From Patescibacteria group bacterium (lineage in GTDB: Bacteria; Patescibacteriota; WWE3; UBA101185; UBA10185), in assembly GCA_049322215.1 (NCBI GenBank), contig JBMORU010000001.1, forward strand, positions 755-64,754: a stretch of 64,000 nucleotides of DNA, read 5' to 3'. Both the position numbers and the translations under genes were made by a program. Shown piece after piece: positions 3,001-62,272 of the stretch (position 1 is the stretch's first letter; each line of letters opens with the position of its first letter). The notes under the pieces are model-generated. The model searched no databases. It saw nothing but the letters and a program-made list of their open reading frames with translations, and was not told where the DNA came from.

Positions 3001-3535
3001 TACTCTATCAGGCGATCTTGATGATTTATCCGAGTTAAGTGTTTGCATGTGGGTATACAACATTGGCTCAGATACAGACTATGGCTACTTTGATAATTTG
3101 AATGGCGGTGGTGGTGGTTTTGTACTCATGCGTGATGAGAGCGGAAGTACAAGTGGTAGAACTGATACCTACAAAGTGTATATCTCTGAAGCAAGTGGGG
3201 GTGACACAGTACATCTAGAAGGAAACAACAGTATTGCTCAAATCAACACATGGACACATATATGTGGTGTTTACAGAGAAAACAATGTGTCCGGTTTACG
3301 GTTGTATGTTAATGGGAAAGAAGATACGTTTAGCCCTGTTAGTACGGTTGGAGTTACTAACATAGACAGCAGTGGTACTACTGCCTACATTGGAAGAAGA
3401 CAGGGGGGAGACTATCATAGCGGACAAATTGACGACGTTCGAATATACAACTATGCCCTATCACAAACACAAATACAAAACATAATAAATAACGCAGCTG
3501 CTGCAAGATTTGGACCAAACACTGGCAGTCCATAA
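1..3535 (+). CDS. Giant secreted surface protein with at least 5 tandem Concanavalin A-like lectin/LamG (Laminin_G_3) repeats. It is 5'-partial: the reading frame is open from nt 2 to the window edge.
   Basis: Repeating module about 200 aa long carrying the motifs WxFDE..G(T/D)xxxDxSGNgN.G, FDGTDDYV, NWHHVA(V/I)T and IDEV(R/K)IYN(Y)AL(S/T). The in-frame translation upstream of the ATG at 89 (KAASSEGASALFGKESNAFLNDGLGGYWKMDD) matches an internal linker motif of the downstream paralog, so the true start is outside the window. Confidence 0.8.
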   Translation, partial: KAASSEGASALFGKESNAFLNDGLGGYWKMDDSSVDAEGEISTDSSGNGNSGTLYGDNSTGDNGTGMDCTVSGKFGTGCDFDGTDDEVDVSDSTSLHLQYGGEITLAAWIKTSDSSGNIIDKSAGNGTNRYGLGLNSGLLRAAFVATDYSGDNNITAYGSTSVNDGNWHHVAITYEYATQAVKFYVDGNYEIEDTVAPSESLGTSIDALTIGESLQGQVDEARIYNRALSSSEVQNLYAWAPEPAAYYSFDENTGTSTINDKSGNSYNGSFTSMNESLWTTGKYGAGLSFDGSMRIVGTDPIVNNYPFSVTGWVKYTASGATTVLFGIGNSASTTGYYEIQGTGAGGIRALSNNGSDNYTGSNTAYNDGQWHHVAMIWASATDRKFYIDGTLDGTSTSSVAFQSSVNRWKIGERASNSTCCRWNGYADEIKVYNYALTPGQIIRDMNAGHPLGGSPVGSQIAYWSFDEMYGDTANDSVGDIEGDLGNTDTTCPATGADCPVWTPNGKINGALDFNGTDDNVYVNTPNNSGPLFLEEKLTISAWIKADDSEIAGTQLAVAKQASSYQIHYALGIVNNTAYFRIGDASTSVTLNGTTDISSGGSTWYHLAGTWDIDIDGGAVNLYVNGKVEDTDYRTTEISTWQDLYIGGADDGTVSNFNGLIDEVKIYGTSLTAEQILIDMNSNAAADFGAKTNEAASLEDGAGNDPVGRWNFNENTGTSANDTTGSGNLGTLSGATWTTGAPGKSTALVFDGSDDYVEIGTDSKVDNSAQGSITAWVYPHDMTATNRAIFGFGGAATGFAGRLEFYTYNGGLFISQNTNGATQNWIRTNYSQLTTNNWHHVAVTSDGAAWKLYINGVEQTTLLGAGSNNGNWFSDTTATAPVHTTIGRIFHNGTWKEPYYGKIDEVTLYDYELSPAQVAYNYNRGAPIGWWQFDECQGAVAYDASGNSNNGSITIGATGDNTSTGTCSSGTSTEAWNNGTTGKFNGSLDFDGTDDAVSSTTLSGDLDDLSELSVCMWVYNIGSDTDYGYFDNLNGGGGGFVLMRDESGSTSGRTDTYKVYISEASGGDTVHLEGNNSIAQINTWTHICGVYRENNVSGLRLYVNGKEDTFSPVSTVGVTNIDSSGTTAYIGRRQGGDYHSGQIDDVRIYNYALSQTQIQNIINNAAAARFGPNTGSP

Positions 3536-3607: not shown

Positions 3608-6600
3608 ATGATTAAAAAAACTATCACCAAAATTAAAAAGACACTTAAAGTAAATAAAAAAAGAGTACTTCCTTTTTTTCTTGGTGCCCTGATAATACTA
3701 CTACCTTTAGTTTATTTGACGATTAAAAATCCAAAAGAAGCACAAGCACAGTGGTTTAATGATGGCTGGGCATACAGAATTAAACTTCCTGTTACTAACA
3801 ATACAACCACCGAATCTGATGTATATATATCCTTTACAGGTGCTGATGTATTAGACACCTCTGCAACTGGCAGATTTCAGGCAGACTGTGGTGACATACG
3901 TTTTACAAAAAGAAATGGGCAGTTACTTCCCTACTACATAAATTCTGGATGTGGCACCTCAAGTACAGATATTGATGTATATTTCGAAGAATTTCCTTCT
4001 GGAACACAAGACATTTACATGTATTATGGCAACCCAAGTGTACAAAATGGGTTTGAAGCATCTGCTTTTGCCTCTTCAGTAGACTCTATAGAAATCCAAA
4101 GAAACACGGCAGATGTAAGTGCTAGCAGCGAAACACAAACTGCTCCAACTAACTTTACAGCATTCGGATCTCTTACAAGTGCCTTTGTGCTTAACTTAAA
4201 CAATCGCCGTCAAAATGCGGGATCTACAACCTCTGCCACTAACGAAAGAGTAAATCAACTCTCCGGGCGAATTGAACTTACTGCCACAGATACAATAACT
4301 TTTTCAAGAAGTTTTGGTGACAACGATGATCATAGGTTTTCCTGGGAATCATGGGAATATACAGGTTCTTCAGGAAATAGTGAATTTATTGTTAGATCAA
4401 GAAATACAGTTACTTTAAGTGCAGTTGAGTCAGCCACTGCAACACTTGACACTACACCAACCGATATAAATAACGTAATCCCTTTTATCACTGGAATTGG
4501 TTGCGATTTAAGCGGAACAGCCTCTACTTGTGGTACAGCTGTAGCGTGGATTTCAGGAACTAATACACTAAACGTAGAGCGCGGTGACGGCACCGCTGAA
4601 AATGTAACTGTACAGGTTGTTTCAGTAGAATTCACAGGATCTGACTGGCAAGTAGCACATGGAGACTCAGGGGACGTTTCTGCAGACTCAGGAACAATTA
4701 CCATAGTAGATAATGCAGATGGCACTACTGCAGGCGGTGGAGATATAAGCGACTGGAGTACTGCTGTAATATTTCATCAAACAAAAGGAGACAGTAATGC
4801 AACTAATGTTGCAATTGCCGATACATCAGCAACCTATCGCCCAAACGCTAATACTAATCAAGTGGATTGGGCATTTAATACAGATCATGACTCGGCTGGA
4901 GATAATAGGCATTTTGTGCATGTCTTAAAAAACCCATACATGACGGTAACACGTTTTACTGACACCGGGGCACTTCAAGGAGCCAATAATGTAGACATAA
5001 CTTCTGCTGGAATAACGGATCTATCTACAACGGCTTCAGAAATTTCATGTACTAGCTCGGGAACAGGTACCGCGTTTGGGCGAGGGTGGAAAAATGGGCG
5101 TATAACAAGTACGACAAACTATGAACACTGGACACACCGGTCAGGAAATACAATTGACTGTGCTATTCAAATTATTGATTTGTCTGGAATAGTTGGAAGC
5201 GCAGGCCTTGGAAGTGCCGCGTCCAACTTTACCATGGGCACATCTGGCTCAGAAGAAAAAGGATCTGGCCCTGTTGGGTACTGGAGATTTAACGAAGGTG
5301 CGGACAATACTTGTCCTAATAATGGCAAAGACGCCTGTGATTCAACTTCAAGAAAAAATGATGCAGCCTTTGGTGCTAGTACAGCAGCGCCCACATGGCA
5401 ACTTCAAAATGCTTGTATATTTGGTAAATGTCTTTTATTTGATGGTAGTGATGATGTAGCCACAGTTACAAATACTAACCCAATAGATTTTGATATTGGC
5501 CTTGAGGGTGGGTTTAGTGTAGTTGCTTGGGTGAAAGCCAGCTCAGACGGAGAAAATGACGTAGGTCAAATTTTTCAAAAAGGCACGAATACATATTTGC
5601 GAATTGATTCCGAAGGGAGCGATGGTTTAGCTGATTTGGAATTTAACCTTGATCTTGCAACTACAGATGCCAACGTTAATATAGCAAACGGCATTACTTT
5701 GAACACATGGCATCATGTAACAGTAACCCACGATGGAACAAGTACCATAACTGTTTACATAGACGGGAAAAATTTGGGTTCAAATACAGGATCGGGCACT
5801 ATGGTCTCTGATGCAAATGACTTGCTTATTGGTGGAACAACTACTGCTAATTTTCATGGATTTATTGATGAATTTAAAATTTTTAACTATGAAAGAGCAG
5901 CTAACAAAGTTAAAACCGATGCTATTAGGGGTGCTTCTGCAGACGGCGCATCTGCTGCTTTTGGCAATGAAAACAAAAATTTTCTTAACGAAGGACTTGT
6001 TGGGTATTGGGACATGGATGAAACAACAGGTGGCATAAATGACTCGTCAGGAGGAAGTAATAATCTTGTTAACCACGGAGCTACATCCTTTGTTGCGGGA
6101 AAATTTGGCAATGGTGGTGACTTTGAATCAGGCAGTTCACAATTTTTTACAGAAGGAAGTACCTCAACGCCAGCGTATGTCAATTCTACACAAAGTGATA
6201 TAACAGCCAGTGGAAATAAAAACATACCTATTCCCAGTGGAACAAGCGTGGGAGATCGCCTTATAGTGAATGTTTCAGGAAACGGAGATGGTCTTGGAAG
6301 CTATTTGACACTTAATAGCGTACCTACAGGATGGACACAAATTGGTAGCACTCAAACATATGATGGAGCCAGCTATAGTGTGGGACAAATTGTATTAACA
6401 GGAATTTATGATGGCACAACCCCTACCATGAATGTATCAATACCTAATGATCCCGATGCGAATCTTATAGTAGGAGCATATTCAAATGCAGATAAAGTAG
6501 ACACTTATATTCAAAATATACAAACTACAGCAAGTACTGTTCATACTACCACTGCAATTACACCAAATGTTGGTGGTGGAGCTCTTCTTGTTGCTATGTG

Positions 6601-9600
6601 GTCTGGAGGTGCAAATATTATTACGGGTACTGCTACAGATGGGAGCTTTACAGAAAGACATGATTACGAGTATTGGGGGCATAACTTTTTATCTACATAC
6701 TACCAAAGCACAGCTGCTGCGGTTCAGGCACAAATGACAGATGACACTGGAGAAGAAACCGCATACACAGTGATGTCTATTTATCCTGCAGGTACAGCTT
6801 CGTCTGCTTTAAGTAATTCAGGAAGCACTACCGTTAGCGCATGGATAAAACCAGAATCGACTACAGCAAGTACTCAATATAATATTGCAGGCAAGTGGGA
6901 TAGTGGTAATGAAGGATATTTACTAGCCCAATATGGTGATGAAATTAGGATGTATATAGGATCAGCTTCTAATTACGTACAAACGTCGGCAACTAATCTC
7001 GCTACGGGCACATGGTATCACGTTGTCGGTTCTTATGACGCTTCTACACAAACAGTAGAAATATATGTTGATGGCGCAAAACAAACAAGCACTGTAACGG
7101 GCACAATACCCTCTTCACTAGCTAATACAGGAGGCCTGTTTCATATTGGGGCGGCTAATTCAGCCGGTACAGCAGATAACTTTTACGATGGTGTTATTGA
7201 TGAAGTGCGCGTATATAGTAGATCATTTTCTCTAGGAGAGGTAAAAGATGTATACAACTGGGCACCAGGACCGGTGGCGTATTGGACGTTGGATGAAAAT
7301 ACAGGAACTACTGCATACGATCAAAGCGGTAATGACTTTAAAGGAAATATGCCCGCAGCGCTTACAGCACCATCTTTTAGAAGCTATACGGAAGAGGTAG
7401 GAAGTTTTAATGACTTTATAACTATAAATAAACCAGCAGGAACTGTAGACGACGATATCATGATTGCAATTATTTATAAAGAAAATAGCGGTGATTTAAC
7501 AGTAGTACCATCTGGATGGACGCTACTTGATCGTGAAACCCCTGCCTCCGACCACGATACACATATTTATTGGAAGCGCGCCAGTTCAGAAGGAGCAAGC
7601 TACACATGGGAATGGGTCAGCAGCGACTGGACACTCGGAGTAATAATTTCATATAGCGGTGCTATTATGAGTGGAAGTCCCATAGATACATACTCTGCCA
7701 ACAGCTCTACCACAGGAACAACAATAACAGCAACAAGTGTTACAACAACTGTAGATAATACAACGGTTTTGGCAGTAGCAACACATTGGAGCGCAACTTC
7801 GGGGAGCTGGACTGGACCTTCAGGATACACAGCACGAGCAGATATAAATACTATCCGCCCCGCAGATAAAACTCAAGCGTCGGCAGGCGCAACTGGAGAT
7901 GCAGTTACCACAACCTCTTCTGGAAGTGAATCATGGACTGCGCATTTGATAGCACTTAAACCACCTGCTGCAGGAGCGCCTGCATGGGTACCTGGTAAGT
8001 TTGGGAGTGCCTTAAAATTTGACGGGTCGCAAGACTATATTGATGTTGGAACAGGCCCCTCTCAAACAAACACTGTAAGTTTTTGGGTAAACCCGACTAC
8101 CACAACAGAATATCCAATAGATTTAAATGGGACGGCCTATGTATGGTTTAACGCAGGCACAGTTACCGCCCAAGGATTTACTTCACCAACTATTTATGTA
8201 AACGGAATTGAGTCAAGTTCTATAGCCGCCAACACATGGAGTCATGTTGCTATAACCACTCAAACTGCCCTAAATGCATCAGATATGGATATTGGTCGGA
8301 TTGAAGGTGTTGGTTTCCATGAAGGCATCATAGACGATGTACGCATTTACGATTATGCTCGAACCTCAGGACAAATCATCGAAGACATGAACGGCGGACA
8401 CCCCTTGGGAGGGTCGCCTGTTGGCTCACAAATACATCGTTGGAAATTTGATGAAATGCAGGGAGATACAGCATACGATCCAATTGGAAATAACAATGGA
8501 AACCTCAGAGGAGCTTGCCCTGGAGCCTCAACATGCCCCACCTGGACATCCTCAGGTAAGATTAATGGCGCGCTTAATTTTAATCCAGCAGACGATGAAG
8601 ACGTAGTAATTACCACACCATCTAACATTGATACAACAGGAGATAGCAAAGGAACGATTACCTTTTGGATGCAGCCCGATTGGAACTCCAGCACAACTTC
8701 AACCGAATATATGATTCTGGGATCTTATGATGCAGTAACAACAGGAGATGGTCTTGCTCTTTTCTTTTGTGGGCCTAGCACTGGCTGCTCTACTGCGGGT
8801 GAATTAGTTTTTTATGCAGCTGACAGTGCAGCTAGACAATCAAATGTTTACATAAGTAATAGCAATCTTTCTTGGGCTGCAGACGACTGGGTGCATGTAG
8901 CCTTAGTTTGGGATGACACACTTACAACTGACAGCATGAGAATTTTTATTAACGGTGTAGAACCACCTCACGGCGCAAACACACCAGCGAATCTCGATTT
9001 ATCTGCCTTATCAATACCTTCAACAATGAATATTGGAAATATATTTACAGGCTATACAAACAGTTTTGATGGCTCAATTGATGACTTTAAAGTATATAAT
9101 GATACGCTAACTGAAGATCAAATAAGAATTGATATGAATGCTAATGCTGCAGTTAACTTTAGCGTTGGAAACAACGAAGAAGCAGATATAGTAGACGGCA
9201 CAGGAAACCCACCAATTGGTTGGTGGAAATTAGACGAAAATACGGGTACCACAACAGTTTTCGACTCTTCAGGAAACAACAATAATGGCACTATGCAAGA
9301 CCTCAATGAATCAGATTGGTTTCCAGGAGTGTACGGAAGTGCCTTATATTTTGATGGCATAAATACAGCAGGAAATGAAGATGTGGTAGATATTTATTCA
9401 AGCAACTTTGCGTCACAGTTTAATACATCTGCAGGTACATTGTCAGCATGGGTAAAAATGAAAGATGCCGCTACATGGACCGACGGCAACGAGTACAATG
9501 CAGTTACTATTAGAGCAGATTCAAGTAATTTAGTAGTTATAGATAAAGACAATGTATCAAGCTTATTGCGAGTTTCATACGAGGCAGGCGCTACTGCAGA

Positions 9601-10618
9601 AACAGTAACTTATTCAACCACAACTACAGATTGGATTCACCTAGCTATAACATGGGACACAACAGCTGACGAAGTAAGACACTATTTTAACGGCGTGCTG
9701 CAACAAACAGACACAGGATTAGGTACTTGGGTGGGAGCTTTAAGCTCATCAAACGTAGTAATAGGTGGAAACGATACTTCTGGAAATGAACCTTGGCAAG
9801 GCTGGATTGATGATGTGAAAGTATATGATTATGCAAGAACCCAAGCGCAAATTGTATACGATTACAATCGAGGAGAACCTGCAGGTTGGTGGAAGTTTGA
9901 TGAGTGTCAAGGAACCACAGTGCATGACGCCAGCGGTAATGGGAATGACGGAACAGTAACAATAGGCGCTACAGGAGGAAACACCTCGGCAGGAACTTGT
10001 TCTTCAGGAACCAGTACGGAGGCATGGAATAACGGCACCACAGGTAAACTAAACTCAAGCTTGGATTTTGATGGAACTGATGATTATGTATCTATTGCTA
10101 ATGGCGACACGCAGTTTGACCACGGCACTGGTGATTTTTCTCATATGGCTTGGGTAAAAACCACACAAGATTGTACCGGAAATAAAATCTATGTAAGCCA
10201 AAGACAAGATACAAGACCTAATATTTGGATTGGGTGTACTCAGTCTGGCGGTATTGGCGTAGCCGCAGCAGACACAGATTCCAGTAGTACAGGAGTTTCT
10301 AGTTTTCCTGGAACAATACAAATCAATGACGGTAATTGGCACCATATTGCTCTCACAAAACAAGGACACAGCAGCGCTACAGTAAAATTATATGTCGACG
10401 GCATTTTAGATGCCACTATAACCCCGGCGTTTTCAGGAACATTTGATTTTACAGAGAATAAGTTTTCTATAGGAAGATTTGAATTATCACCTTATTATTA
10501 TGCCGACGCACAAATTGACGATGTTAGAGTTTATAGATACGCACTCTCACCAGATCAAATACTTAAAGTAATGAACGAAGGGTCTGCCCGCTTTGGTCCC
10601 GAAACAGGGCCCCCATAG
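3608..10618 (+). CDS. Giant (2336 aa) secreted protein with a signal peptide/N-terminal anchor, a DUF2341 N-domain and about 9 LamG/ConA-like repeats. Paralog of the upstream gene.
   Basis: The N-terminus MIKK..FFLGALIILLPLVYL..AQAQW is signal-peptide-like. WAYRIKLPVTNNTT...DCGDIRFT...LLPYYI...YMYYGNP matches the DUF2341 pattern. Repeated FDG(S/T)DDY.., NWHHVA/TWHHV and IDE(V/F)(R/K)(V/I)(Y/F)N motifs follow. The C-terminus is near-identical to that of gene 1 (ARFGPETGPP vs ARFGPNTGSP). Confidence 0.8.
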   Translation: MIKKTITKIKKTLKVNKKRVLPFFLGALIILLPLVYLTIKNPKEAQAQWFNDGWAYRIKLPVTNNTTTESDVYISFTGADVLDTSATGRFQADCGDIRFTKRNGQLLPYYINSGCGTSSTDIDVYFEEFPSGTQDIYMYYGNPSVQNGFEASAFASSVDSIEIQRNTADVSASSETQTAPTNFTAFGSLTSAFVLNLNNRRQNAGSTTSATNERVNQLSGRIELTATDTITFSRSFGDNDDHRFSWESWEYTGSSGNSEFIVRSRNTVTLSAVESATATLDTTPTDINNVIPFITGIGCDLSGTASTCGTAVAWISGTNTLNVERGDGTAENVTVQVVSVEFTGSDWQVAHGDSGDVSADSGTITIVDNADGTTAGGGDISDWSTAVIFHQTKGDSNATNVAIADTSATYRPNANTNQVDWAFNTDHDSAGDNRHFVHVLKNPYMTVTRFTDTGALQGANNVDITSAGITDLSTTASEISCTSSGTGTAFGRGWKNGRITSTTNYEHWTHRSGNTIDCAIQIIDLSGIVGSAGLGSAASNFTMGTSGSEEKGSGPVGYWRFNEGADNTCPNNGKDACDSTSRKNDAAFGASTAAPTWQLQNACIFGKCLLFDGSDDVATVTNTNPIDFDIGLEGGFSVVAWVKASSDGENDVGQIFQKGTNTYLRIDSEGSDGLADLEFNLDLATTDANVNIANGITLNTWHHVTVTHDGTSTITVYIDGKNLGSNTGSGTMVSDANDLLIGGTTTANFHGFIDEFKIFNYERAANKVKTDAIRGASADGASAAFGNENKNFLNEGLVGYWDMDETTGGINDSSGGSNNLVNHGATSFVAGKFGNGGDFESGSSQFFTEGSTSTPAYVNSTQSDITASGNKNIPIPSGTSVGDRLIVNVSGNGDGLGSYLTLNSVPTGWTQIGSTQTYDGASYSVGQIVLTGIYDGTTPTMNVSIPNDPDANLIVGAYSNADKVDTYIQNIQTTASTVHTTTAITPNVGGGALLVAMWSGGANIITGTATDGSFTERHDYEYWGHNFLSTYYQSTAAAVQAQMTDDTGEETAYTVMSIYPAGTASSALSNSGSTTVSAWIKPESTTASTQYNIAGKWDSGNEGYLLAQYGDEIRMYIGSASNYVQTSATNLATGTWYHVVGSYDASTQTVEIYVDGAKQTSTVTGTIPSSLANTGGLFHIGAANSAGTADNFYDGVIDEVRVYSRSFSLGEVKDVYNWAPGPVAYWTLDENTGTTAYDQSGNDFKGNMPAALTAPSFRSYTEEVGSFNDFITINKPAGTVDDDIMIAIIYKENSGDLTVVPSGWTLLDRETPASDHDTHIYWKRASSEGASYTWEWVSSDWTLGVIISYSGAIMSGSPIDTYSANSSTTGTTITATSVTTTVDNTTVLAVATHWSATSGSWTGPSGYTARADINTIRPADKTQASAGATGDAVTTTSSGSESWTAHLIALKPPAAGAPAWVPGKFGSALKFDGSQDYIDVGTGPSQTNTVSFWVNPTTTTEYPIDLNGTAYVWFNAGTVTAQGFTSPTIYVNGIESSSIAANTWSHVAITTQTALNASDMDIGRIEGVGFHEGIIDDVRIYDYARTSGQIIEDMNGGHPLGGSPVGSQIHRWKFDEMQGDTAYDPIGNNNGNLRGACPGASTCPTWTSSGKINGALNFNPADDEDVVITTPSNIDTTGDSKGTITFWMQPDWNSSTTSTEYMILGSYDAVTTGDGLALFFCGPSTGCSTAGELVFYAADSAARQSNVYISNSNLSWAADDWVHVALVWDDTLTTDSMRIFINGVEPPHGANTPANLDLSALSIPSTMNIGNIFTGYTNSFDGSIDDFKVYNDTLTEDQIRIDMNANAAVNFSVGNNEEADIVDGTGNPPIGWWKLDENTGTTTVFDSSGNNNNGTMQDLNESDWFPGVYGSALYFDGINTAGNEDVVDIYSSNFASQFNTSAGTLSAWVKMKDAATWTDGNEYNAVTIRADSSNLVVIDKDNVSSLLRVSYEAGATAETVTYSTTTTDWIHLAITWDTTADEVRHYFNGVLQQTDTGLGTWVGALSSSNVVIGGNDTSGNEPWQGWIDDVKVYDYARTQAQIVYDYNRGEPAGWWKFDECQGTTVHDASGNGNDGTVTIGATGGNTSAGTCSSGTSTEAWNNGTTGKLNSSLDFDGTDDYVSIANGDTQFDHGTGDFSHMAWVKTTQDCTGNKIYVSQRQDTRPNIWIGCTQSGGIGVAAADTDSSSTGVSSFPGTIQINDGNWHHIALTKQGHSSATVKLYVDGILDATITPAFSGTFDFTENKFSIGRFELSPYYYADAQIDDVRVYRYALSPDQILKVMNEGSARFGPETGPP

Positions 10619-41414: not shown

Positions 41415-41891
41415 TTAACCTCTCAAGTTTTTGATCCAGGCCATCAGGGCTTGGGGAGCGCTTGTTAAAGGTAATCTGTACAGGAAAATTCCCGCAGGTT
41501 CCTCGTAGCGCTCAAAAACCATATTGTACAAAGGCATACCGTTTTTACCCCACCTAGCTACCCAGTCGGGACTGTTGAATTCGGTCTCAAGCCAAAGTCG
41601 ATGTGTAGGGTACCGTCGCGTTTCGGTTAGAAAAATGTGTACCTTATCCGCTTGGGTCATAATTTTGACTTTTGCAGGACGGCCAAAAACAGCATGAAAA
41701 GAACCTTGCTGCTTGTCAACCCAGGCAATTGTGGCAGAACGACCATCTATTACTAACAAATGGCGGTTCTTAGCTACATGAAGGATAGGATATCCCGAAG
41801 GGGATCTTTCATCTGCCAATACCGCACCGCGTGTCCCTGCAAGCAAAGGCAAGGCAACCGTTTCGGCTACAGTTTTTGCAAGTCTGCTCAT
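41415..41891 (-). CDS. Hypothetical protein (158 aa), GC-rich (about 55%) relative to the neighbourhood
   Basis: Long ORF with strongly different base composition from flanking genes. No domain recognised. Confidence 0.5.
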   Translation of the reverse strand: MSRLAKTVAETVALPLLAGTRGAVLADERSPSGYPILHVAKNRHLLVIDGRSATIAWVDKQQGSFHAVFGRPAKVKIMTQADKVHIFLTETRRYPTHRLWLETEFNSPDWVARWGKNGMPLYNMVFERYEEPAGIFLYRLPLTSAPQALMAWIKNLRG

Positions 41892-49792: not shown

Positions 49793-51241
49793 ATGAAAAC
49801 GCAAAAGAAAGGTTTATTGGCTTTGTTAGCCACGATCGCGGCGCCTTTAATGCTGATTGGTGCTTTTTTGACCTTAGGCAGTGAAGCAAACGCGCAAGTT
49901 CAGGCCTCAGCAGCTCTGGTTATCCCCCTTTCTACTGACGCCCCGGTAGCAGATGCAAATCCTGTCACCGGAACCGGCGAACAGTGTTGGGACGATGCCC
50001 CACGGATTGTTGATGGAAAACTGTACGATATCTGCGTTGGCTGGAACTACGCCTCTGGTGGAGCATTGAGTACGCACACCATTTGGGCCCCACAATGGCA
50101 AACGGATGCTTTCACAAGAACAATGTGGGGAGGAAATGTTGAAATGGTTGTACAATACAACGACGGCTATACATGCAGCGGACAGTCAGCGAAAGTTGAA
50201 ACTGGGCTAACTCATGCAGTTGTAGCTGTAGGCACTGGCGGCGGTAATATTGGATTTGGACCTGGCGAAGGAGCAGTTTGCGAGCACGAGGTGACGGACT
50301 TTAACACGTACGTTTTTCTTCTCACAAACGTGATTTCTGGCACCGAATTCCAAGTTCTTTCTGACGGCTTCCCTGTGTATGAGGAAACGCTACATGGTGG
50401 TTTGGCCTTTACAGTTACTGCTTCAATTCCCACCTACGCGGAATGGTCTTTGATTCAAACAAACTTGACCCCTCCTGGAGGTGAAGCTGTTCAATCTAGC
50501 CAAGGGTATACATATAATCCCAATCCATCAGAACCTCCTGTGGTACCCGAACTGAATGTCTCTTTGATCACGCCGGTGTTACTCACACAACCTATCACTG
50601 ACACAAGCACGACAGTTGCAGACAACAACGACATTTGCTACAGCGCGCCCGCGGTAGGCTACCTAAGCAACGCATCTCTTCCTGAATGTGTACGGTTCGA
50701 AACTTCGGCACCTACCTCTACGATCGAACTGTTCTACACACCGGAAATGGTAGAGACCAACGGAGATCAAACACTGTGGACCTTTGACCCGGCCAATATG
50801 GATCTCATTGTTACTTACGCTGATGGCACCCAGATGATCTGCGATAGTATCTACATCGTGCCTGGCCCCATGAAAATCGAAGTTATCGGCCAAGGCAGTA
50901 TCGGTCAAGGTGGTGGTGTTTCTGATTCGTGCAACTACGTGCCCGCCTTCCCCATGAAGAAATTCGGCATCAACGTAGCAAACGTCTCGGAACCCACATC
51001 TGTTGTGATGGCCTATGGAGAAAGCAATCCAGAAATCCTGACAAGCCAAACCATCACTACCGATACAGAAATCGTCGTAGAAGTTCCAACCTACCAATGG
51101 ACGTACGTGAGCACCTGGACCTGCGACGCAAACACGGCGCTTATCGGTGGCTTATGTGCACCTTCGCAAGCAGAAGTATCCGGCTGGATGTACTTGCCCC
51201 CGCAACTTACATTCATGCCTGTCGTGTTCAACAACCAGTAA
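49793..51241 (+). CDS. Secreted hypothetical protein (482 aa), GC-rich (about 50%)
   Basis: Signal peptide MKTQKKGLLALLATIAAPLMLIGAFLTLGSEANA. No sorting signal. Composition is distinct from its neighbours. Confidence 0.5.
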   Translation: MKTQKKGLLALLATIAAPLMLIGAFLTLGSEANAQVQASAALVIPLSTDAPVADANPVTGTGEQCWDDAPRIVDGKLYDICVGWNYASGGALSTHTIWAPQWQTDAFTRTMWGGNVEMVVQYNDGYTCSGQSAKVETGLTHAVVAVGTGGGNIGFGPGEGAVCEHEVTDFNTYVFLLTNVISGTEFQVLSDGFPVYEETLHGGLAFTVTASIPTYAEWSLIQTNLTPPGGEAVQSSQGYTYNPNPSEPPVVPELNVSLITPVLLTQPITDTSTTVADNNDICYSAPAVGYLSNASLPECVRFETSAPTSTIELFYTPEMVETNGDQTLWTFDPANMDLIVTYADGTQMICDSIYIVPGPMKIEVIGQGSIGQGGGVSDSCNYVPAFPMKKFGINVANVSEPTSVVMAYGESNPEILTSQTITTDTEIVVEVPTYQWTYVSTWTCDANTALIGGLCAPSQAEVSGWMYLPPQLTFMPVVFNNQ

Positions 51242-54273: not shown

Positions 54274-54714
54274 TTAGGGGCGCTCGGGATCCGGTATTTT
54301 AAAGAGCAAAACAGCAAAAGGGCCGATTTCTTCATGGGAAACTATAAAACGATACCCTCGTGGGAACTCGCCTTGGGTTTCATAAGAGAAAACAACCTCA
54401 TCACCCTCCACACCATGAAAAATCAACGTAATCACAGCATCCTCTACACGTAACGTATACTCGTTATCGTTCATTGGGGCTTCTGCGGTAAACTCCCTCT
54501 TGTCAGTGGCCTGGATCGACTCAATTCTACTGTTTAACTCAGCCGGCGAAGCTTGCTGCAAAGTAAATTCGGTGCCTTCATGCGTGGCCTCAACATAAAC
54601 TTCAGGGGTTGTTTCGGTGGGTAAACACGCTGCCAGCAGACCCAACAGCACAATGCTTAGCAAAAAAACTATTCGTCTCATTTCTTTTTCCTTTTTATTT
54701 GGATTTGTGACCAA
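54274..54714 (-). CDS. Small lipoprotein (lipobox LLAAC), GC-rich
   Basis: MRRIVFLLSIVLLGLLAACLP is a signal peptide plus lipobox. GC is about 47% against an AT-rich flank. Confidence 0.5.
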   Translation of the reverse strand: MVTNPNKKEKEMRRIVFLLSIVLLGLLAACLPTETTPEVYVEATHEGTEFTLQQASPAELNSRIESIQATDKREFTAEAPMNDNEYTLRVEDAVITLIFHGVEGDEVVFSYETQGEFPRGYRFIVSHEEIGPFAVLLFKIPDPERP

Positions 54715-57665: not shown

Positions 57666-57827
57666 ATGACACTCTTTTCGCGCTTGAATGTTCTATAACT
57701 TAAGCCTGTGACTTTCTCAACAGTAAAAAAAATGGCGTAGAAAATACAATGCAGGTTTTATCCTTTATTGTACTTACTACGCCATGTGTCGCGTTAGTTA
57801 GTAGAACTAGCTAACTTTTGGTTTTGA

Positions 57828-58898
57828 TTAATCGTCCGTGCTAACAGTTGCATCAATGTGAGTAGGATCCAACGTAATGCCGCGCTCTTCGCAATAGGTT
57901 ACAGCGAATTCAGGATCCAAGTTGGCCGGAATACCTTTGTCTTCAATGCGTTCGCAATATTCCACCCGAAGCTGTTCAGCCCACAACATCTCAGCTTGTT
58001 CATAGAAGGCTTGTGTGCTGGGGCGACATACAGGAATTTTGGTTCCTTGATCGTTGATATCACCCCACGGTCCAATCGTGAACTTGGCAGCGGTCTGTCC
58101 AGGGCTGTTGTGAAAACCCAGTTTGATATCGATGCCGGGCAAAAGTTCAACACTACCACAGTTGGTTTGCATTGGCTCACCCGGATACTGAACGTTAATC
58201 CAGCTACCAGCGACTGCCCATGCAGACAAACCATCATTTGAAGGTAAGCCCATACCTTGCGGATCACCCTCAAAGTATAGTTGCTGCAAATAGGTAGAAT
58301 GTGTCACCTCTTGCTCCAAATCGCCATTGAAGTAGTCAAAACGACCATAGTGCAGTGTAACCGTGTAAGAGGCGCCACCACTCACTTCAAACTGGTAACA
58401 GTCCGTGAACAATACACCGGGTGCCGCATCAGGAGCATTACCCTCAACTACATGCGGGGTACCCCACTGACAGACAACATTTTCGGTGCTTTCCCAAATT
58501 TCGGGTTCTTCAAACGTGGCATCCATACCGGCAACCAAACCAGGTACAGCACGACCATATTGAAGAGCAGCATCGAATTCTTCTTGCCTAAAGGTACCTT
58601 CCACAGGGACTTCAACTTCGACCTCTACCGGAACTTCAACGATCCGCGTGGCTTCAACTTCAACCTCAATGCGTTCTACAATGGTTGTAGCAGTCGCAGC
58701 AGGCATAGCTTCGGCCTCGGCGGTTTCAGCTTCCGGACGGTTGTTCAAAGCGTTCTGAACAGATTCCCCATCAATCGTCGCAATGGCCGTAGGCTCACCG
58801 AGATCCAGGGGGACTTCAGTGTTTTCCTCGCCACAAGCAACAACAAACAGAGCGAAAACCAATACCAATACAAGTAAGATCCAATTCTTTTTAGACAT
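57828..58898 (-). CDS. Lipoprotein (lipobox FVVAC), GC-rich, acidic
   Basis: MSKKNWILLVLVLVFALFVVACGEEN. A repetitive VEVEVPVEVEVEV segment. GC is about 50%. Confidence 0.55.
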   Translation of the reverse strand: MSKKNWILLVLVLVFALFVVACGEENTEVPLDLGEPTAIATIDGESVQNALNNRPEAETAEAEAMPAATATTIVERIEVEVEATRIVEVPVEVEVEVPVEGTFRQEEFDAALQYGRAVPGLVAGMDATFEEPEIWESTENVVCQWGTPHVVEGNAPDAAPGVLFTDCYQFEVSGGASYTVTLHYGRFDYFNGDLEQEVTHSTYLQQLYFEGDPQGMGLPSNDGLSAWAVAGSWINVQYPGEPMQTNCGSVELLPGIDIKLGFHNSPGQTAAKFTIGPWGDINDQGTKIPVCRPSTQAFYEQAEMLWAEQLRVEYCERIEDKGIPANLDPEFAVTYCEERGITLDPTHIDATVSTDD

Positions 58899-59202
58899 GT
58901 CTATTCTCCTTATTAAGATTTTGTGGATCTGGCTTACAAAAAAGCAAAAATTTGACTATTTTGTGCCTTGAAAAGGTACTAAATTTAATACCCTTACAAG
59001 GCTCAAAATATTTAGTTCATAATGAATTCTGCATATATTATACCCTATAGTTAGAGTTGCGACAATAACATTTAAGTTAAATACAGAGTGTAAGGTGAGT
59101 GTATGGGGATTTCAATTTTGATTTGTGATCAATTTTGAATTTACACACTCACTAAACTAATTACAAGTTGCGTTTCGTTGTAATTAGGGCTCCCACTAAA
59201 AC

Positions 59203-59739
59203 CTATTCGTAAATGCTTACAAACTTATAGGTTTCTTCGCAATCGCCGCCGGGGTCATAGGTGAAAGTCGAGCCATACTGCGCATCGGCTGGAATTTCGA
59301 AGGTAACAAGACCACAGGCTTGGTTGGGCACTGTAGCTTGATCTCCGGGTTTCCATCCATGAACAGCAGCGGTATCTTCTTTGGCTGCGACGTCTGGGGC
59401 TGGGTAAGCGGTTTCGGTCGGTTCTTCGTTTGCGCCCAGGTCAAGGTCAACAGAAGATTCGTCGTTGCCAATGGCGGTAACGAATTCTTGCTGCATAACC
59501 CAGTTGTATGCCCTTTGGCCATAAAGCAAACTGACCGCACCGCAGATACACAGAACTAGGATCAAGGGAATGATCCACAACAAGCGACGTGAGTTTCCAT
59601 TCGAACCGGAAGCAGCAACTTGATTGAAATCATGGCCGCAATTGGGGCAAGTAGCTTCGGTGTCCTGTACCATGTTGTGGCAGTCAGGGCACTCTTTCTC
59701 GTTAAGGTTGGGAAGATTTACATTTGGTACTTGATTCAT
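59203..59739 (-). CDS. Zinc-ribbon / single-TM / extracytoplasmic-domain membrane protein
   Basis: N-terminal CPDCHN...CPNCGHDF zinc ribbon, then the TM helix LLWIIPLILVLCICGAVSLLY, then a 110-aa C-domain. It lies 40 nt downstream of the tubulin-like gene on the same strand. Confidence 0.55.
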   Translation of the reverse strand: MNQVPNVNLPNLNEKECPDCHNMVQDTEATCPNCGHDFNQVAASGSNGNSRRLLWIIPLILVLCICGAVSLLYGQRAYNWVMQQEFVTAIGNDESSVDLDLGANEEPTETAYPAPDVAAKEDTAAVHGWKPGDQATVPNQACGLVTFEIPADAQYGSTFTYDPGGDCEETYKFVSIYE

Positions 59740-59778
59740 CGTTATTCTCCTTATCTAATAGTTTTTTTGACATTGTTC

Positions 59779-61422
59779 CTACTTCAAAAGAGTCGTTCGG
59801 CGGGCACGAGCCTTACGCAACGCTTGCTTTTTTTCGAGTTGACGCATTTCATCATAGGTTAAGGCGTTGAAACCAGGCTCTTCAATGGGATATCCCGCAG
59901 GTCCTGTAATTACATTGCCTTCCTCATCCCTCAGCAAACTCATATGCTCGTAAATTAAAGTGGACGGACCAAAGGGACGCTCATCACTATGGTGAGGAAC
60001 ACCGTCAGGAACAGTGGTCGGGACAAAGGCACGGCGTGCATTTATGAAAGCCACACCGTTTTGGACGGCATGCAATCTCTCCATTCGCACAGCATCAAGC
60101 AGCTCAGGGCCTTCTTCAGGAAGAAGATAGGGGCCACTTGCACGACTCTGCAAACGCAAATTCTGTACAATACCATCAATTTCGCGCAAAATTCCAGCAA
60201 CCAAGCCCGGAATGTGCGTCCAATTGGTAACACCTCCCTCATCAATTGGTTTATCCAAACCCTGTTCGTTGTAAATACGACGTAGTTGGGTTTCGGCATA
60301 ACCACTTGCAAAGAAGGCTTTCATGCGTGCTAGATCGCCAACTGTGCGCGCCTGAGAAGCAGAAACTTTCAACGAAGCCACGAAGCCAGAGGACTTACGG
60401 AATCCGTTTTTCTGTAGTTCCCAAACATCATCATATAGAGCCCAATCAAAGGAATCCCCATTGTTGATGATGGCAGAAGCAATACGCTTGATGTCCAGAA
60501 CAGTAAGCTCATCAGAAATGAGCATTACGTTGGGGGCCATCCGGTCTGCAACCCTATTGTTAAGATGCGCCATAATGTCCGGCAGCATCATCAACAGAGC
60601 CATAATACCGTAGGTACCCAAACGACTGGAAACAAAAATCGAATCTTCTTCGGTTTCCCACATGTGGCGAGAGCGATCCCAGGCATCTTGCGCTTTAGGA
60701 TTTAACACACCGTCGTGACGACGAATCATGTTATCGTAAGCACGCCATCCCAAAAACACTTTTGGAATGCCGGCAAATCCATTAAGGCCACGCTCTTTTG
60801 CGATACTTTCTGCAATGGCCAAGGCAAGTTTGTAAATACCTGCTCCTGTGCCACCCGCAGTGCCGATAAAGGCTACGGGAAGAATGTTCTTCACAATGCC
60901 CGAGCCTACCATAGCATCGGCAAACTCAAACATATAGTCTTCCAGGGCATCCTGCGTGAGATACATGATGTACTTACCTACAAGAGGCAGCGCACCAGCA
61001 CCCCAACGAACCGATCTGTTGCCAAACTCAGGATGTTGCACCAACTCTGCAAATTCAGCTCGCTCTTGTTCGTTGTCAAACGCTTCAAGAGGCACGCCGT
61101 GTTGAGCAACAGCTTCTTGCAAGGTCAGGTCCATATGCTCACCAAGGCGAACGATACCCCAATTTTGAGCTTGGGGGTTAGTTTTTTGGTCTTCAAAATC
61201 CCCAGCCTTGAAGTGGGTGTCAACTTTGATGACTTTGATAAGCGTTCGAAGATCAGGGTATTTTTGGAACAGACGCACAAATTCGTGGCCTAAACCGCCA
61301 ACACCGCCCAATAAGAATACAACGATAAGATCAACGTCTTTGATCTCCTCATGGGCGAAGAAATCCTTCAGAATAGGATCTTTACCCAGACGAGAGCGAA
61401 CATATTCCATGATTTTAGACAT
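59779..61422 (-). CDS. Divergent tubulin/FtsZ-superfamily GTPase (TubZ/FtsZ-like, not canonical FtsZ), 547 aa
   Basis: T1-like Gly loop LIVVFLLGGVGGLG. IGTAGGTGAGI matches the tubulin/FtsZ signature [SAG]GGTG[SA]G. An acidic ISDELTVLD segment sits at the expected T7 spacing. The long C-terminal extension ends in a basic tail (RKARARRTTLLK). Confidence 0.5.
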   Translation of the reverse strand: MSKIMEYVRSRLGKDPILKDFFAHEEIKDVDLIVVFLLGGVGGLGHEFVRLFQKYPDLRTLIKVIKVDTHFKAGDFEDQKTNPQAQNWGIVRLGEHMDLTLQEAVAQHGVPLEAFDNEQERAEFAELVQHPEFGNRSVRWGAGALPLVGKYIMYLTQDALEDYMFEFADAMVGSGIVKNILPVAFIGTAGGTGAGIYKLALAIAESIAKERGLNGFAGIPKVFLGWRAYDNMIRRHDGVLNPKAQDAWDRSRHMWETEEDSIFVSSRLGTYGIMALLMMLPDIMAHLNNRVADRMAPNVMLISDELTVLDIKRIASAIINNGDSFDWALYDDVWELQKNGFRKSSGFVASLKVSASQARTVGDLARMKAFFASGYAETQLRRIYNEQGLDKPIDEGGVTNWTHIPGLVAGILREIDGIVQNLRLQSRASGPYLLPEEGPELLDAVRMERLHAVQNGVAFINARRAFVPTTVPDGVPHHSDERPFGPSTLIYEHMSLLRDEEGNVITGPAGYPIEEPGFNALTYDEMRQLEKKQALRKARARRTTLLK

Positions 61423-61869
61423 TTGTAAAAACCTCCGTGTTTTTGTTTTTTTGTTTTCTAGAAAAAGTTGTGATCACAACCCAGATAACCCATAAAAGGG
61501 GTTCAACACATAAAGTGCACTTCATGTATTGCTGAGTAACCAAAGTATCTAAACTAAAGCAAAAAAAAGGGAAGTAGAATTGTCATACAAATCCCCTAAC
61601 TTCCTTAATTTTTTTTATATTACGCATTAAATTACGACTTCTATCAGGTACTCTAGTTGCTCAGCAACACACAAAAACTAATCCGGGAAAAATTAAACAC
61701 AAAGATTTTAAGTTTTGATCAATAAATTGATCATCCCCATACACATTGCCTACGAAAATTTAAAATTTTCATAAGCACCTTACACTCTGCATTTTATAAA
61801 ATTTTCAAAGTTCTTTGTGATAACAAAAAATTGACCGTAACAAACAAGTCAGGTCAATGTGTGACAAAG

Positions 61870-61895
61870 ACAAAAAACGACCCACAAGAGGGTCA
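61870..61895 (-). terminator. Orphan minus-strand intrinsic terminator in an ORF-free region
   Basis: On the minus strand: GACCC-tcttgt-GGGTC + GTTTTTTG. It is preceded about 30-60 nt upstream on the minus strand by a TTGACA-17 nt-TACACT promoter-like pair (61937-61965). Confidence 0.4.
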
Positions 61896-62243
61896 GTAGT
61901 CTTCCCTTCTCGCATAAGTTTTTGTCTTGCGACAGTGTACCAAGAAACCCCATTAATGTCAACCTATAGCATCTGAGTTTTGAGCAGCCAGCTAAATAAG
62001 CAAAGACGCGTCCTACAGCATAACGAATTAATGGCGTTTAAAGCAATAATGCATATGATATTATTTTCTTTTTGTTGCTTATTTTACGAGAAATTTTCAG
62101 CAATACACCAACATGCATAGCTTGTTAAAATTTTTAAAGTTAGCTAATCTGTATTTGTTAAGCCTGCTTCTCCTGTCCAGAAGCAAATTGGCCTTAATTC
62201 TAAAAAACGTCTTCTGCGGTTGTCGCATATACGTCGCTCCCTC

Positions 62244-62272
62244 GCGGGGGGCGTTTTTTTTCATTTACCAAT
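62244..62272 (+). terminator. Plus-strand intrinsic terminator with no annotated plus-strand gene upstream
   Basis: CGCTCCC-tcgcg-GGGGGCG (one mismatch) followed by T8. Confidence 0.5.

Follow-up and report, generated by a model that had tools for sequence, protein, structure and literature searches.

This study describes a two-gene unit in a Patescibacterium that encodes a very diverged, 547-aa GTPase of the tubulin/FtsZ superfamily and, directly downstream, a 178-aa zinc-ribbon protein with a single transmembrane (TM) helix. Three relatives of the GTPase were found among 1.84e9 representatives, and with the protein from the window (the whole 64,000-nt stretch of DNA analysed here) four sequences are known. 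They constitute a tiny, extremely sparse and previously undescribed branch of the superfamily in the CPR/Patescibacteria, where cell biology is almost unknown. The interpretation we prefer, and to which we would give an even chance, is that the GTPase self-associates, is tethered to the membrane by the zinc-ribbon protein, and is encoded with it in a variable chromosomal slot, where the pair is bracketed by an RNA clamp. The compact architecture and the one-gene membrane partner make the family unusually tractable.

The three open reading frames proposed by an earlier, sequence-only reading of this DNA (547, 178 and 356 aa) are all present at their coordinates. The first two make up the unit:

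59779..61422, minus strand: gene for the 547-aa diverged tubulin/FtsZ-superfamily GTPase (open reading frame, motifs, Pfam, models, fold searches, hhalign)
Loops of the 547-aa protein: T1, G39-G40; T3, G141-A144; T4, G187-G195
59203..59739, minus strand: gene for the 178-aa bitopic partner (open reading frame, Pfam, TM and relative comparison)

A diverged tubulin/FtsZ-superfamily GTPase

The GTPase domain of the 547-aa protein comprises residues ~30-290 and carries GGVGG at residue 39, GAGA at 141 and AGGTGAG at 189, so that T1 and T4 lie about 150 aa apart and not ~170 aa, as had been estimated. The T4 signature [SAG]GGTG[SAT]G is satisfied by AGGTGAG (residues 189-195), occurs once among the 31,990 six-frame ORF residues of the window, and has a chance expectation of 4.7e-5 per protein at the composition of the 547-aa protein. 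An alignment of all four family members shows T1 (GG), T3 (GAGA(NP)xxG) and T4 (GxxGGTGxG) to be invariant: G39 and G40 come after the strand at 32-39, in the order expected of T1, and G141-A-G-A144 and G149 are unchanged at T3, with the FtsZ-like form GAGANP in three of the four. These three loops are kept, in order, by relatives that are only 25-28% identical, and the superfamily signature that had been recognized in T1 and T4 is borne out as a family-wide feature. An H7-like helix spans 270-287 and is followed by invariant N288, N289 and N298 at the place expected of T7. The segment ISDELTVLD occupies residues 302-310, where all four members retain an acidic residue at 305. The T7 motif of FtsZ and tubulin is NxDxxD/E, and the spacing from N298 to the acidic residue at 305 is unlike it. 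The C-terminal half (~250 aa) is family-specific and ends in a conserved charged helix (523-546), total lengths in the family being 534-570 aa. The 547-aa protein also has a basic C-terminal tail.

Profile comparisons gave a graded picture. Against Pfam Tubulin_2 (PF13809) the 547-aa protein scored 12.8 bits (E 0.07; cutoff 27 bits), so that on its own it stayed below threshold in the profile search that had been proposed as a check, but the family member P0003 exceeded the gathering threshold of 27 with 31.6 bits. P0002 reached 17 bits (E 3.7e-3) and P0004 had no Tubulin_2 match in Pfam. All these matches fell between T1 and T4 or between T3 and T4, and covered only positions ~11-210 of the 356 in the profile. 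P0003 also matched Tubulin (PF00091) with E 1.8e-3, and the family profile aligned with E. coli FtsZ in hhalign across T3-T4-S5 (probability 83%, E 8.7e-6). A PDB sequence search with the 547-aa protein gave no significant match, and its sub-threshold profile list consisted mostly of FtsZ, aligned over T3-T4. When predicted models were used for fold searches, the GTPase domain was superposable on FtsZ/tubulin and the top 44 Foldseek matches in the PDB were all FtsZ or CetZ, the structural outcome that had been anticipated. PADLOC, PHROGs and NCBIfam returned nothing for the GTPase, and so lend no support to a known defence system or a phage origin. The 547-aa protein is a true, very diverged tubulin/FtsZ-superfamily GTPase that has kept the T1, T3 and T4 loops and the Rossmann-like fold of the GTPase domain. 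Judged by its sequence profile, the family is nearest to Tubulin_2, also called FtsZ-like 1 (FtsZl1).

We infer that the 547-aa protein polymerises. A possible, if rather unlikely, alternative is that it has the tubulin/FtsZ fold and forms no cytomotive filaments, acting as a nucleotide-dependent switch or scaffold, or assembling through non-canonical interfaces, with the zinc-ribbon protein as its effector or receptor. Profiles and fold searches recognise the GTPase domain only, and in Tubulin_2, the nearest profile, the T6-H7 part and the C-terminal domain cannot be aligned to FtsZ (PMC2875224; PMC9871819). The models, which were built from a four-sequence alignment, have pLDDT <50 in the T7 region (~40), in the middle domain and at residues ~420-520, and the tubulin-type activation domain and catalytic T7 loop are for this reason still putative. 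Against the alternative, the H7-like helix is followed by the invariant NN, N298 and the conserved acidic 305 in the place of T7, the Foldseek alignments span 270-310 columns of FtsZ, and the order of secondary-structure elements after H7 fits H8-S7-H9-S8-H10 in both models. The case touches a wider question, also raised by FtsZ-like 1, of how the tubulin fold diverges with filament formation kept or lost.

The zinc-ribbon membrane partner

The partner gene begins 39 nt 3' of the GTPase gene and has its own GGAG ribosome-binding site. Its product carries a zinc ribbon of the form CPxC...CPxCG (CPDC...CPNCG; C17, C20, C31 and C34) that is predicted to be cytoplasmic and is its only cytoplasmic part; Pfam zinc-ribbon matches were sub-threshold. 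One strong TM segment, preceded by RR, follows at 53-71 (Kyte-Doolittle 2.75), and then an acidic ectodomain of ~105 aa, the two Cys of which are also found in the orthologue from the related locus L002. Genes for a CxxC...CxxC protein with a TM helix start 2-39 nt downstream of the GTPase gene in the window, L001 and L002 (2-12 nt in the latter two), and for P0002, too, a gene follows after 9 nt, known by position only. The zinc-ribbon/TM gene is a conserved, tightly linked partner in every relative with readable DNA, in agreement with both its original description from the window and the co-occurrence that had been suggested as a test.

The partner may tether the GTPase to the membrane. The 547-aa protein would bind GTP and self-associate at the inner face of the membrane, where the zinc ribbon of the partner would keep it, as ZipA or CdpC do for FtsZ, and the small, Cys-containing ectodomain would link the GTPase assembly to the envelope. 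The gene pair belongs to the flexible gene pool and lies outside the core division machinery. FtsZ and its anchors follow the same logic, that of a soluble tubulin-fold GTPase with a membrane-attached adaptor. ZipA has its TM helix at the N terminus and binds FtsZ through a cytoplasmic domain, and differs from the partner described here, whose cytoplasmic part is a zinc ribbon and which has an ectodomain beyond its TM helix. In Haloferax, the zinc-ribbon protein CdpC directly binds and anchors FtsZ1; it has two zinc ribbons, an amphipathic helix at its N terminus that binds the membrane, and a long linker (bioRxiv 10.64898/2026.07.16.738847). The partner has a single zinc ribbon, along with a true TM helix and an ectodomain, and would resemble CdpC in function only, but the parallel with archaea raises the question of whether zinc ribbons are a recurrent tether for such GTPases. 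Charge complementarity between the tail of the GTPase and the zinc-ribbon segment was considered by inspection and was dropped because the pattern was inconsistent across three pairs.

A variable slot with GC-rich genes

The surroundings of the pair, and the features that mark them, are as follows:

62166..62184, minus strand: invariant backbone hairpin (GCTTCT-GGACAGG-AGAAGC), at the upstream edge of the variable slot
62235-62253: bidirectional terminator of yacL, adjoining the invariant hairpin
59037-59065: promoter-like site of the lipoprotein gene
57828..58898, minus strand: GC-rich lipoprotein gene, 356 aa, with signal peptide and lipobox (FVVAC), outside the clamp
57732-57785: terminator of the lipoprotein gene (hairpin and U-run)

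The GTPase, partner and lipoprotein genes have a GC content of 0.48-0.50 (GC3 0.44-0.49), compared with 0.32-0.38 (GC3 0.21-0.29) for backbone genes. The GC-rich island of the sequence-only reading is in this sense real for its three genes, but not for the intergenic spacers, which are not GC-rich. High expression as the cause of the high GC was refuted by the genes for ribosomal protein L10, Obg and Rho, which have GC3 values of 0.21-0.24. The further idea that the island had been acquired horizontally proved too simple. L002 has the same gene order and GC anomaly, with the module at the same site and 27% protein identity (yacL flank 62%, cargo 27-32%), and many relatives carry other GC-rich genes there, for membrane or secreted proteins. 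The GTPase gene is missing at this site in 40 related genomes, and in L043 two rve transposases lie in the slot region, along with a gene for an AbiEii toxin. What had been read as a GC-rich island is, in WWE3-type Patescibacteria, a slot with variable contents downstream of radA-yacL. The invariant hairpin was considered as a second recombination site and rejected, since a search of the window that tolerated 3 mismatches gave no further copy, and it matched no Rfam family.

The lipoprotein gene, which had been taken for a third member of the module, is present and GC-rich but is not a conserved component of it: a 304-nt AT-rich spacer separates it from the gene pair, and it has a promoter-like site and a terminator of its own.

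Complementary segments around the gene pair

The gene pair lies between two complementary segments, a bracket that is absent from the sequence-only reading. They are listed here with the other candidate transcript signals:

61934..61962, minus strand: promoter-like site (TTGACA, 17 nt, TACACT, TG extension), a consensus match only, ~140 nt upstream of box A
61870..61895, minus strand: short hairpin and U-run, between the promoter-like site and box A
61715..61794, minus strand: 5' half of the predicted clamp (inverted repeat, shuffle test, co-folding, consensus structure, covariation)
Parts of the 5' half: box A, 61777-61794; local hairpin, 61748-61776; box B, 61733-61744; further pairing segments, 61715-61730
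59079..59132, minus strand: 3' half of the predicted clamp (same lines of evidence), between the zinc-ribbon gene and the promoter-like site of the lipoprotein gene
Parts of the 3' half: C', 59112-59132; box B', 59099-59110; box A', 59079-59096

Inverted repeats of 17-21 nt surround a gene pair in four genomes (window, L002, L004 and L043), which represent two pairs of relatives. In L062 and L071 the contigs break off, which leaves just the left arm. The bracket is not general to GC-rich islets, being confined to these four. Within the same bracket, L004 and L043 hold an unrelated pair consisting of a large protein and a small membrane protein; the 599-aa cargo protein of L004 was considered as a very diverged relative of the GTPase and rejected (hhalign probability 0.2%, no Pfam match). 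Each of the four genomes has a TTGACA-17-TAnnAT site ~100-140 nt ahead of box A. The hairpin and U-run at 61870..61895 could possibly be a leader terminator or attenuator, and L004 has a similar element at 7067-7090.

In three genomes the inverted repeat was compared with 300 dinucleotide shuffles each, and it outscored every one of them. Co-folding of the halves gave 32-44 intermolecular base pairs at -72 to -82 kcal/mol, compared with about -38 to -48 for shuffles, and compensatory double changes were present in 14 of 37 pairs, a level reached by none of 500 shuffles, with the segments compared having been picked from the co-folds themselves. This conserved, covarying 5'/3' complementarity would most likely form an mRNA clamp or processing stalk made of two long-range helices and a local hairpin, which may separate the message for the GTPase and its partner from the downstream lipoprotein gene. 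Bacterial rRNA operons provide a parallel: long-range processing stalks flank their rRNAs and are substrates of RNase III. In both cases complementary segments lie kilobases apart on the sense transcript, and a helix of 18-21 bp together with further helices is predicted here; the difference is that the predicted helices enclose a protein-coding bicistron.

An alternative explanation, which we regard as unlikely, is that the repeats act on DNA, either as ends of an old mobile cargo cassette or as recombination sites of an invertible, phase-variable segment of 2.7 kb. Inverted repeats that bracket the pair in four genomes, with unrelated cargo in the same bracket, would suit this, as would the complementarity of helices A and B taken alone, the concerted evolution of the arms within each genome, and the plasticity of a zone that in L043 includes the toxin gene and transposases. 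On the other hand, no recombinase or transposase adjoins the module in the window, L002 or L004, and the cassette has one orientation in all four genomes. The spacing of boxes A and B differs between left and right, as would be expected more of an internal loop in RNA than of the core sites of a recombinase. Of the six imperfect positions of helix A, five are G.U and none A.C when the sense strand is read; predicted folding favours the sense over the antisense strand by 10-25 kcal/mol in each of the four genomes, and the local hairpin between the helices covaries as well.

A covarying bracket that holds alternative cargo, together with persistently GC-rich accessory genes in an AT-rich genome, suggests that these reduced genomes arrange and express their flexible genes in a way yet to be explored. 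We would go further only with much doubt, to the suggestion that the pair is a self-contained, membrane-anchored tubulin/FtsZ-type filament machine of episymbiotic WWE3, and one of several interchangeable cassettes, each with a large cytoplasmic and a small membrane protein, in a clamp-closed expression slot. If true, this would be an unrecognised platform of cassette exchange and mRNA processing for envelope-associated machinery.

Distribution and relationship to known families

All four family proteins are singleton clusters, and the host is a WWE3-type Patescibacterium in both cases with visible backbone sequence. Pattern scans of GTDB species genomes, JGI metagenomes and IMG/VR found no family relatives, nor did tblastn against 50,697 phage and 72,556 plasmid records. 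A word-indexed homology search, with the single sequence or with the 4-sequence profile, matched only the 547-aa protein itself, and an exact-sequence contig look-up with this protein gave no match. The relatives of the 547-aa protein are Logan-only and evidently invisible to word-indexed search.

The sequence-only reading had likened the protein to TubZ, PhuZ and FtsZ-like families, and of these the FtsZ-like resemblance stood, with Tubulin_2 nearest, while that to TubZ and PhuZ did not. A DNA-positioning or segregation system of the TubZ/PhuZ type, left behind by a plasmid or phage, is very improbable. It would account for the foreign-looking composition (the GC3 contrast given above), and TubZ uses a basic C-terminal tail, such as the 547-aa protein has. 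Searches of the phage and plasmid records, IMG/VR and PHROGs were, however, all blank for relatives, and the vicinity holds no TubR-like DNA-binding gene, no centromere-like repeat array and no replication or phage structural gene. In two genomes the module sits at a syntenic chromosomal site, and the conserved partner is a membrane protein. That the motifs are coincidental in an unrelated Rossmann-like enzyme, or else belong to a housekeeping FtsZ, is scarcely credible: the sub-threshold Pfam score of the 547-aa protein taken alone has to be set against the three invariant, ordered loops, the low chance expectation of T4, the score of P0003 and the FtsZ-dominated PDB list, and a division FtsZ, already discounted in the sequence-only reading, against the apparent lack of FtsZ_C, the lack of dcw neighbours, the 40 related genomes without the gene at this site and the existence of only four sequences.

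No branch of the superfamily is clearly closest to the 547-aa protein when TubZ/PhuZ and CetZ/tubulins are compared. It is unlike TubZ/PhuZ in its lack of plasmid or phage context, TubR and centromere, and unlike CetZ and tubulins in having a bacterial host and not an archaeal or eukaryotic one; the C-terminal half is unrelated to any of these as far as visible. With FtsZ it shares the fold of the GTPase domain and the T1, T3 and T4 motifs. It differs in its T1-T4 spacing of 150 aa, in having no Pfam match to FtsZ_C, or to PF00091 at threshold, and in its gene context of radA, yacL, glycosyltransferases and membrane proteins. A tblastn search with E. coli FtsZ reached the 547-aa gene with E 8.2 only.

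Makarova and Koonin (2010), who described FtsZl1, noted that filament formation of the canonical kind may be absent from this group, whose members are ~1000 aa long and combine an extended central coiled coil with an alpha-helical domain at the C terminus (PMC2875224). Their operons include genes for vWA-domain proteins, a diverged P-loop GTPase, and kinases or OmpA-family proteins, and a membrane-associated role has been proposed (PMC2875224; PMC9871819). The new family is likewise very diverged, sparse and accessory, apparently without FtsZ_C and Tubulin_C. Unlike FtsZl1, its members are 534-570 aa long, and both models of the 547-aa protein contain no long coiled coil, only isolated helices of ~25 residues and a middle part of mixed alpha/beta structure. 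The neighbours of the GTPase gene, the zinc-ribbon/TM protein and the lipoprotein, gave no match to vWA, kinase or OmpA, and the zinc-ribbon single-pass membrane protein is the sole conserved neighbour. FtsZ-like 2 is proteobacterial and has all of T1-T7, a mixed alpha/beta C-terminal region of ~300 aa and no conserved neighbours (PMC2875224); by this description, a Patescibacteria host and a conserved partner gene speak against placing the new family in that group.

The 547-aa tubulin/FtsZ-like protein of the window (the GTPase) belongs to a new and very rare family within the tubulin/FtsZ superfamily and is encoded beside a conserved, zinc-ribbon, single-pass membrane partner. The gene pair resides in a variable, GC-rich slot and is surrounded by a covarying bracket. 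We infer that the GTPase would self-assemble at the membrane in a GTP-dependent way, with the zinc ribbon of the partner tethering the assembly, and that the bracket would have a role at the RNA level; envelope organisation, host contact and defence are candidate purposes of such an assembly.

Genes and base composition

The three ORFs claimed by an earlier, sequence-only reading were all found, at the following positions:

59779–61422, minus strand: GTPase gene, 547-aa ORF
59203–59739, minus strand: gene for the zinc-ribbon/TM partner, 178-aa ORF, 39 nt downstream of the GTPase gene and with its own GGAG site
57828–58898, minus strand: lipoprotein gene, 356-aa ORF

The lipoprotein gene had been described as following the pair, and it does, but it is set apart by a 304-nt AT-rich spacer and has a promoter-like site and a terminator of its own. 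The GC content of about 50% attributed to the three genes, against an AT-rich backbone, agrees with the measured values (GC 0.48–0.50; GC3 0.44–0.49, compared with 0.21–0.29 in backbone genes). An effect of expression is ruled out, since the genes for L10, Obg and Rho have a GC3 of 0.21–0.24.

The AT-rich genome is sprinkled with GC-rich accessory genes. Those for a 482-aa secreted protein (49793–51241, plus strand), a 146-aa lipoprotein (54274–54714, minus strand) and a 158-aa cytoplasmic-looking protein (41415–41891, minus strand) have the same foreign composition (GC 0.45–0.50, GC3 0.43–0.49), and no Pfam family was found in the first two. Two giant ORFs fill the first 10.6 kb (1148 aa at 89–3535 and 2336 aa at 3608–10618, both plus strand); their GC is raised (0.42–0.43) but their GC3 is only 0.28–0.32, so amino-acid composition accounts for the rise.

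A new family of the tubulin/FtsZ superfamily

The GTPase carries the motifs GGVGG (residue 39), GAGA (141) and AGGTGAG (189), and the spacing between loops T1 and T4, previously put at about 170 aa, measures about 150 aa. By chance, a protein with this composition would contain the T4 signature, [SAG]GGTG[SAT]G, 4.7e-5 times; the whole window, with 31,990 residues in six-frame ORFs, has it exactly once. Used alone as query, the GTPase matched only Tubulin_2 in Pfam (E 0.07, 12.8 bits, cutoff 27), with no match in NCBIfam, PHROGs, PADLOC or a PDB sequence search. Phmmer, run exhaustively against 1.84 billion cluster representatives, gave just three relatives, P0002, P0003 and P0004 (E 1.8e-40 to 1e-23, identity 27–28%), and each family protein is a singleton among about 15 billion proteins.

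Mean identity to the GTPase in a four-way alignment is only about 25%, and all four members keep G39-G40 of T1, G141-A-G-A144 and G149 of T3, and G187 and G190-G-T-G193-x-G195 of T4; in three of them T3 reads GAGANP, as in FtsZ. P0003 exceeds the Tubulin_2 threshold of Pfam itself (31.6 bits) and matches Tubulin (PF00091) at E 1.8e-3. The family profile aligned with E. coli FtsZ over T3-T4-S5 (hhalign probability 83%, E 8.7e-6), and FtsZ chains aligned over this same region dominate the sub-threshold PDB profile list. An AlphaFold2 model from the four-sequence alignment is confident over residues ~30–225 (pLDDT 75–89) and poor beyond, and its top 44 Foldseek matches in the PDB are all FtsZ or CetZ (E 1.7e-4 to 3.7e-3). 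Conserved loops, profiles and fold matches together rule out a coincidental T4 motif: the GTPase is a real member of the superfamily, as had been proposed.

The superposable part, ~180–233 residues only, is the GTPase domain. Behind an H7-like helix (270–287), three asparagines, N288, N289 and N298, are invariant, and position 305 keeps an acidic residue, which lies in the ISDELT of the segment proposed as T7-like. Asparagine and acid are not spaced as in the NxDxxD/E motif of FtsZ and tubulin, and the stretch was modelled at pLDDT ~40. GTP binding thus has good support from the sequence; polymerisation by way of a T7 loop and activation domain of the canonical kind is what we infer. Residues ~420–520, outside the modelled part, include a dozen invariant positions, and a conserved charged helix (523–546) ends the protein.

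In structure, the model comparisons single out no branch of the superfamily as closest, and by sequence profile the nearest family is Tubulin_2 (PF13809), which is the FtsZ-like 1 (FtsZl1) group of Makarova and Koonin (PMC9871819; PMC2875224). FtsZl1 proteins run to ~1000 aa and contain a long coiled coil, and their operons include vWA proteins, a P-loop GTPase, kinases or OmpA-family proteins (PMC2875224). The present family differs in each respect, being 534–570 aa long, with a long coiled coil in neither model and a zinc-ribbon/TM protein as the neighboring gene product, and lacks the defining FtsZl1 architecture. The likeness to TubZ/PhuZ seen by the sequence-only reading found no support: phage, plasmid and IMG/VR collections yielded no relatives, and neither an adaptor gene nor centromere-like repeats lie near the gene. 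Its exclusion of the housekeeping division FtsZ was sound, given the lack of an FtsZ_C domain and of a dcw context, and the absence of the gene from the yacL site in 40 related genomes (0/40). We file the proteins as a new small family, closest to Tubulin_2, of which no description was found in the searchable literature.

The zinc-ribbon partner and the lipoprotein

The partner has a CPDC...CPNCG pair, with sub-threshold zinc-ribbon Pfam matches, and one strong hydrophobic segment (53–71) with RR just before it, which fits a cytoplasmic zinc ribbon and a C-terminal ectodomain outside. At L001, the locus of P0003, the next gene begins 12 nt past the stop codon and encodes CPTCG...CVSCG and then the start of a TM helix; at L002, the locus of P0004, the gap is 2 nt and the product is a 138-aa protein that combines CVNC...CTNCG with a TM helix and a small ectodomain. 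An alignment of the window and L002 partners covers the zinc ribbon, the TM helix and an ectodomain motif in which both have the same two cysteines. Co-occurrence, proposed from the window alone, is thus seen at three of three readable loci (the window, L001 and L002); for P0002, judged by position only, the next gene begins 9 nt downstream. The spacing of 2–39 nt suggests coupled expression of the pair. In Haloferax, the zinc-ribbon protein CdpC binds FtsZ1 directly and is a membrane anchor (bioRxiv 10.64898/2026.07.16.738847), a precedent that makes the zinc ribbon plausible as a membrane tether for the GTPase; both proteins have a zinc ribbon but their architectures differ, and the likeness is analogy rather than established homology.

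The lipoprotein, earlier counted with the other two genes, is not part of the conserved module: the L002 version has a homologue (E 8e-17) at L020, in a genome without the GTPase, and the window and L002 lipoproteins are alike only in the signal and linker region.

A variable slot downstream of yacL

The slot is flanked by a yacL-like PIN/TRAM gene with 45–58% identical relatives in WWE3-type Patescibacteria MAGs. L002 and the window have the order yacL, spacer, GTPase, zinc-ribbon gene and lipoprotein gene in common; the GC contrast at L002 is 0.50–0.55 against 0.33–0.39, and identity between the two is 27–32% for the cargo proteins and 62% for the yacL C-terminus. The GTPase was found at none of 40 GTDB loci and none of 30 further loci retrieved via a lineage-specific hairpin tag, and many of these have, in the same position, GC-rich genes of other kinds, which encode single-pass membrane or secreted proteins. 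The slot at L043 has an AbiEii toxin gene and two rve-family transposase genes at its flanks (L043 3760–4593, 10287–11964). The region downstream of radA-yacL is a plasticity zone. The horizontally acquired island once proposed is too simple a picture, since other GC-rich genes occupy the site and L002 keeps the gene order at so low a cargo identity; the island is a variable slot that draws on a flexible pool of GC-richer genes, and no single recent insertion. The hairpin is as follows:

62166–62184, minus strand: invariant hairpin GCTTCT-GGACAGG-AGAAGC (7 bp), also at L002 447–462, L004 5402–5417, L043 4676 and 26 other loci

It lies downstream of yacL, adjoins a bidirectional terminator (62235–62253), and is followed after ~70 nt by a conserved AACAAGCGATG block. 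Its 16-mer matches exactly at 13 of 42 loci, and the 20-mer occurs in 30 JGI metagenome contigs; it has no Rfam match, and no covariation because it never varies.

The bracket around the gene pair

A 19-nt inverted repeat (61776–61794/59079–59097, 18/19 complementary) encloses exactly the GTPase and zinc-ribbon genes, and its L002 equivalent is 21 nt. At L004 and L043 the repeat encloses genes for an unrelated large protein (599 and 582 aa, respectively) and a TM protein (135 and 115 aa):

L004 7682–9984 and L043 6001–8139: alternative cargo, a 582–599-aa protein with a basic C-terminal tail and a 115–135-aa membrane protein

The large protein is unannotated; only three relatives were found (P0005–P0007), and neither a Pfam domain nor any relation to the GTPase could be detected.

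The repeat exceeds 300/300 dinucleotide shuffles in the window, L002 and L004. Co-folding of the 5' and 3' flanks gives a bipartite element of the same design in these three and L043, with helix A (18–21 bp), helix B (10–12 bp) and, between them, a local 5' hairpin whose sequence differs among genomes. In total the co-folds form 32–44 intermolecular pairs; their energies of −72 to −82 kcal/mol compare with about −38 to −48 (sd ~3) when the partner is shuffled. In all four genomes the sense strand folds more stably than the antisense, by 10–25 kcal/mol, and of the six imperfect positions of helix A, five are G.U pairs in the sense strand. All three helices also come out of RNAalifold, with compensatory double changes in 14 of 37 pairs (shuffled mean 4.4, 0/500 shuffles reaching 14, slid controls at most 6), in an analysis of four genomes forming two related pairs and of segments taken from the co-folds themselves. 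A TTGACA-17-TAnnAT site lies ~100–140 nt upstream of box A, the 5' arm of helix A, in all four. We read this as a putative mRNA 5'/3' clamp or processing stalk delimiting the bicistron. Inverted repeats acting at the DNA level, as an old cassette or invertible segment, would also fit the complementarity of helices A and B, but the window, L002 and L004 have no recombinase next to the module, all four genomes carry it in one orientation, and boxes A and B are spaced differently at one end than at the other.

Several smaller features accompany the putative clamp. A short hairpin with a U-run (window 61870–61895, minus strand; L004 7067–7090) lies 30–40 nt after the conserved promoter-like site and before box A, and looks like a leader terminator, an attenuator or a ~50-nt small RNA. 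Directly upstream of box A in L004 (~7115–7142) is a tandem direct repeat of two copies of AACAGAGATGAAT, and box A there begins ...ATGCAGAG; the repeated CAGAG motifs may be protein-binding sites. The L002-type left arm, TAGAGAGCAAGGT, occurs ~340 nt after the hairpin tag at L062 3512 and L071 386, where the contigs stop short of any cargo gene and what can be read shows no GTPase-family match. An exact 11-nt inverted repeat, TGTGCGGGAAC, borderline against shuffles when taken alone, flanks GC-rich islets of ~800 bp in L020 (near 4703) and L042 (near 2764) and may be a second type of bracket.
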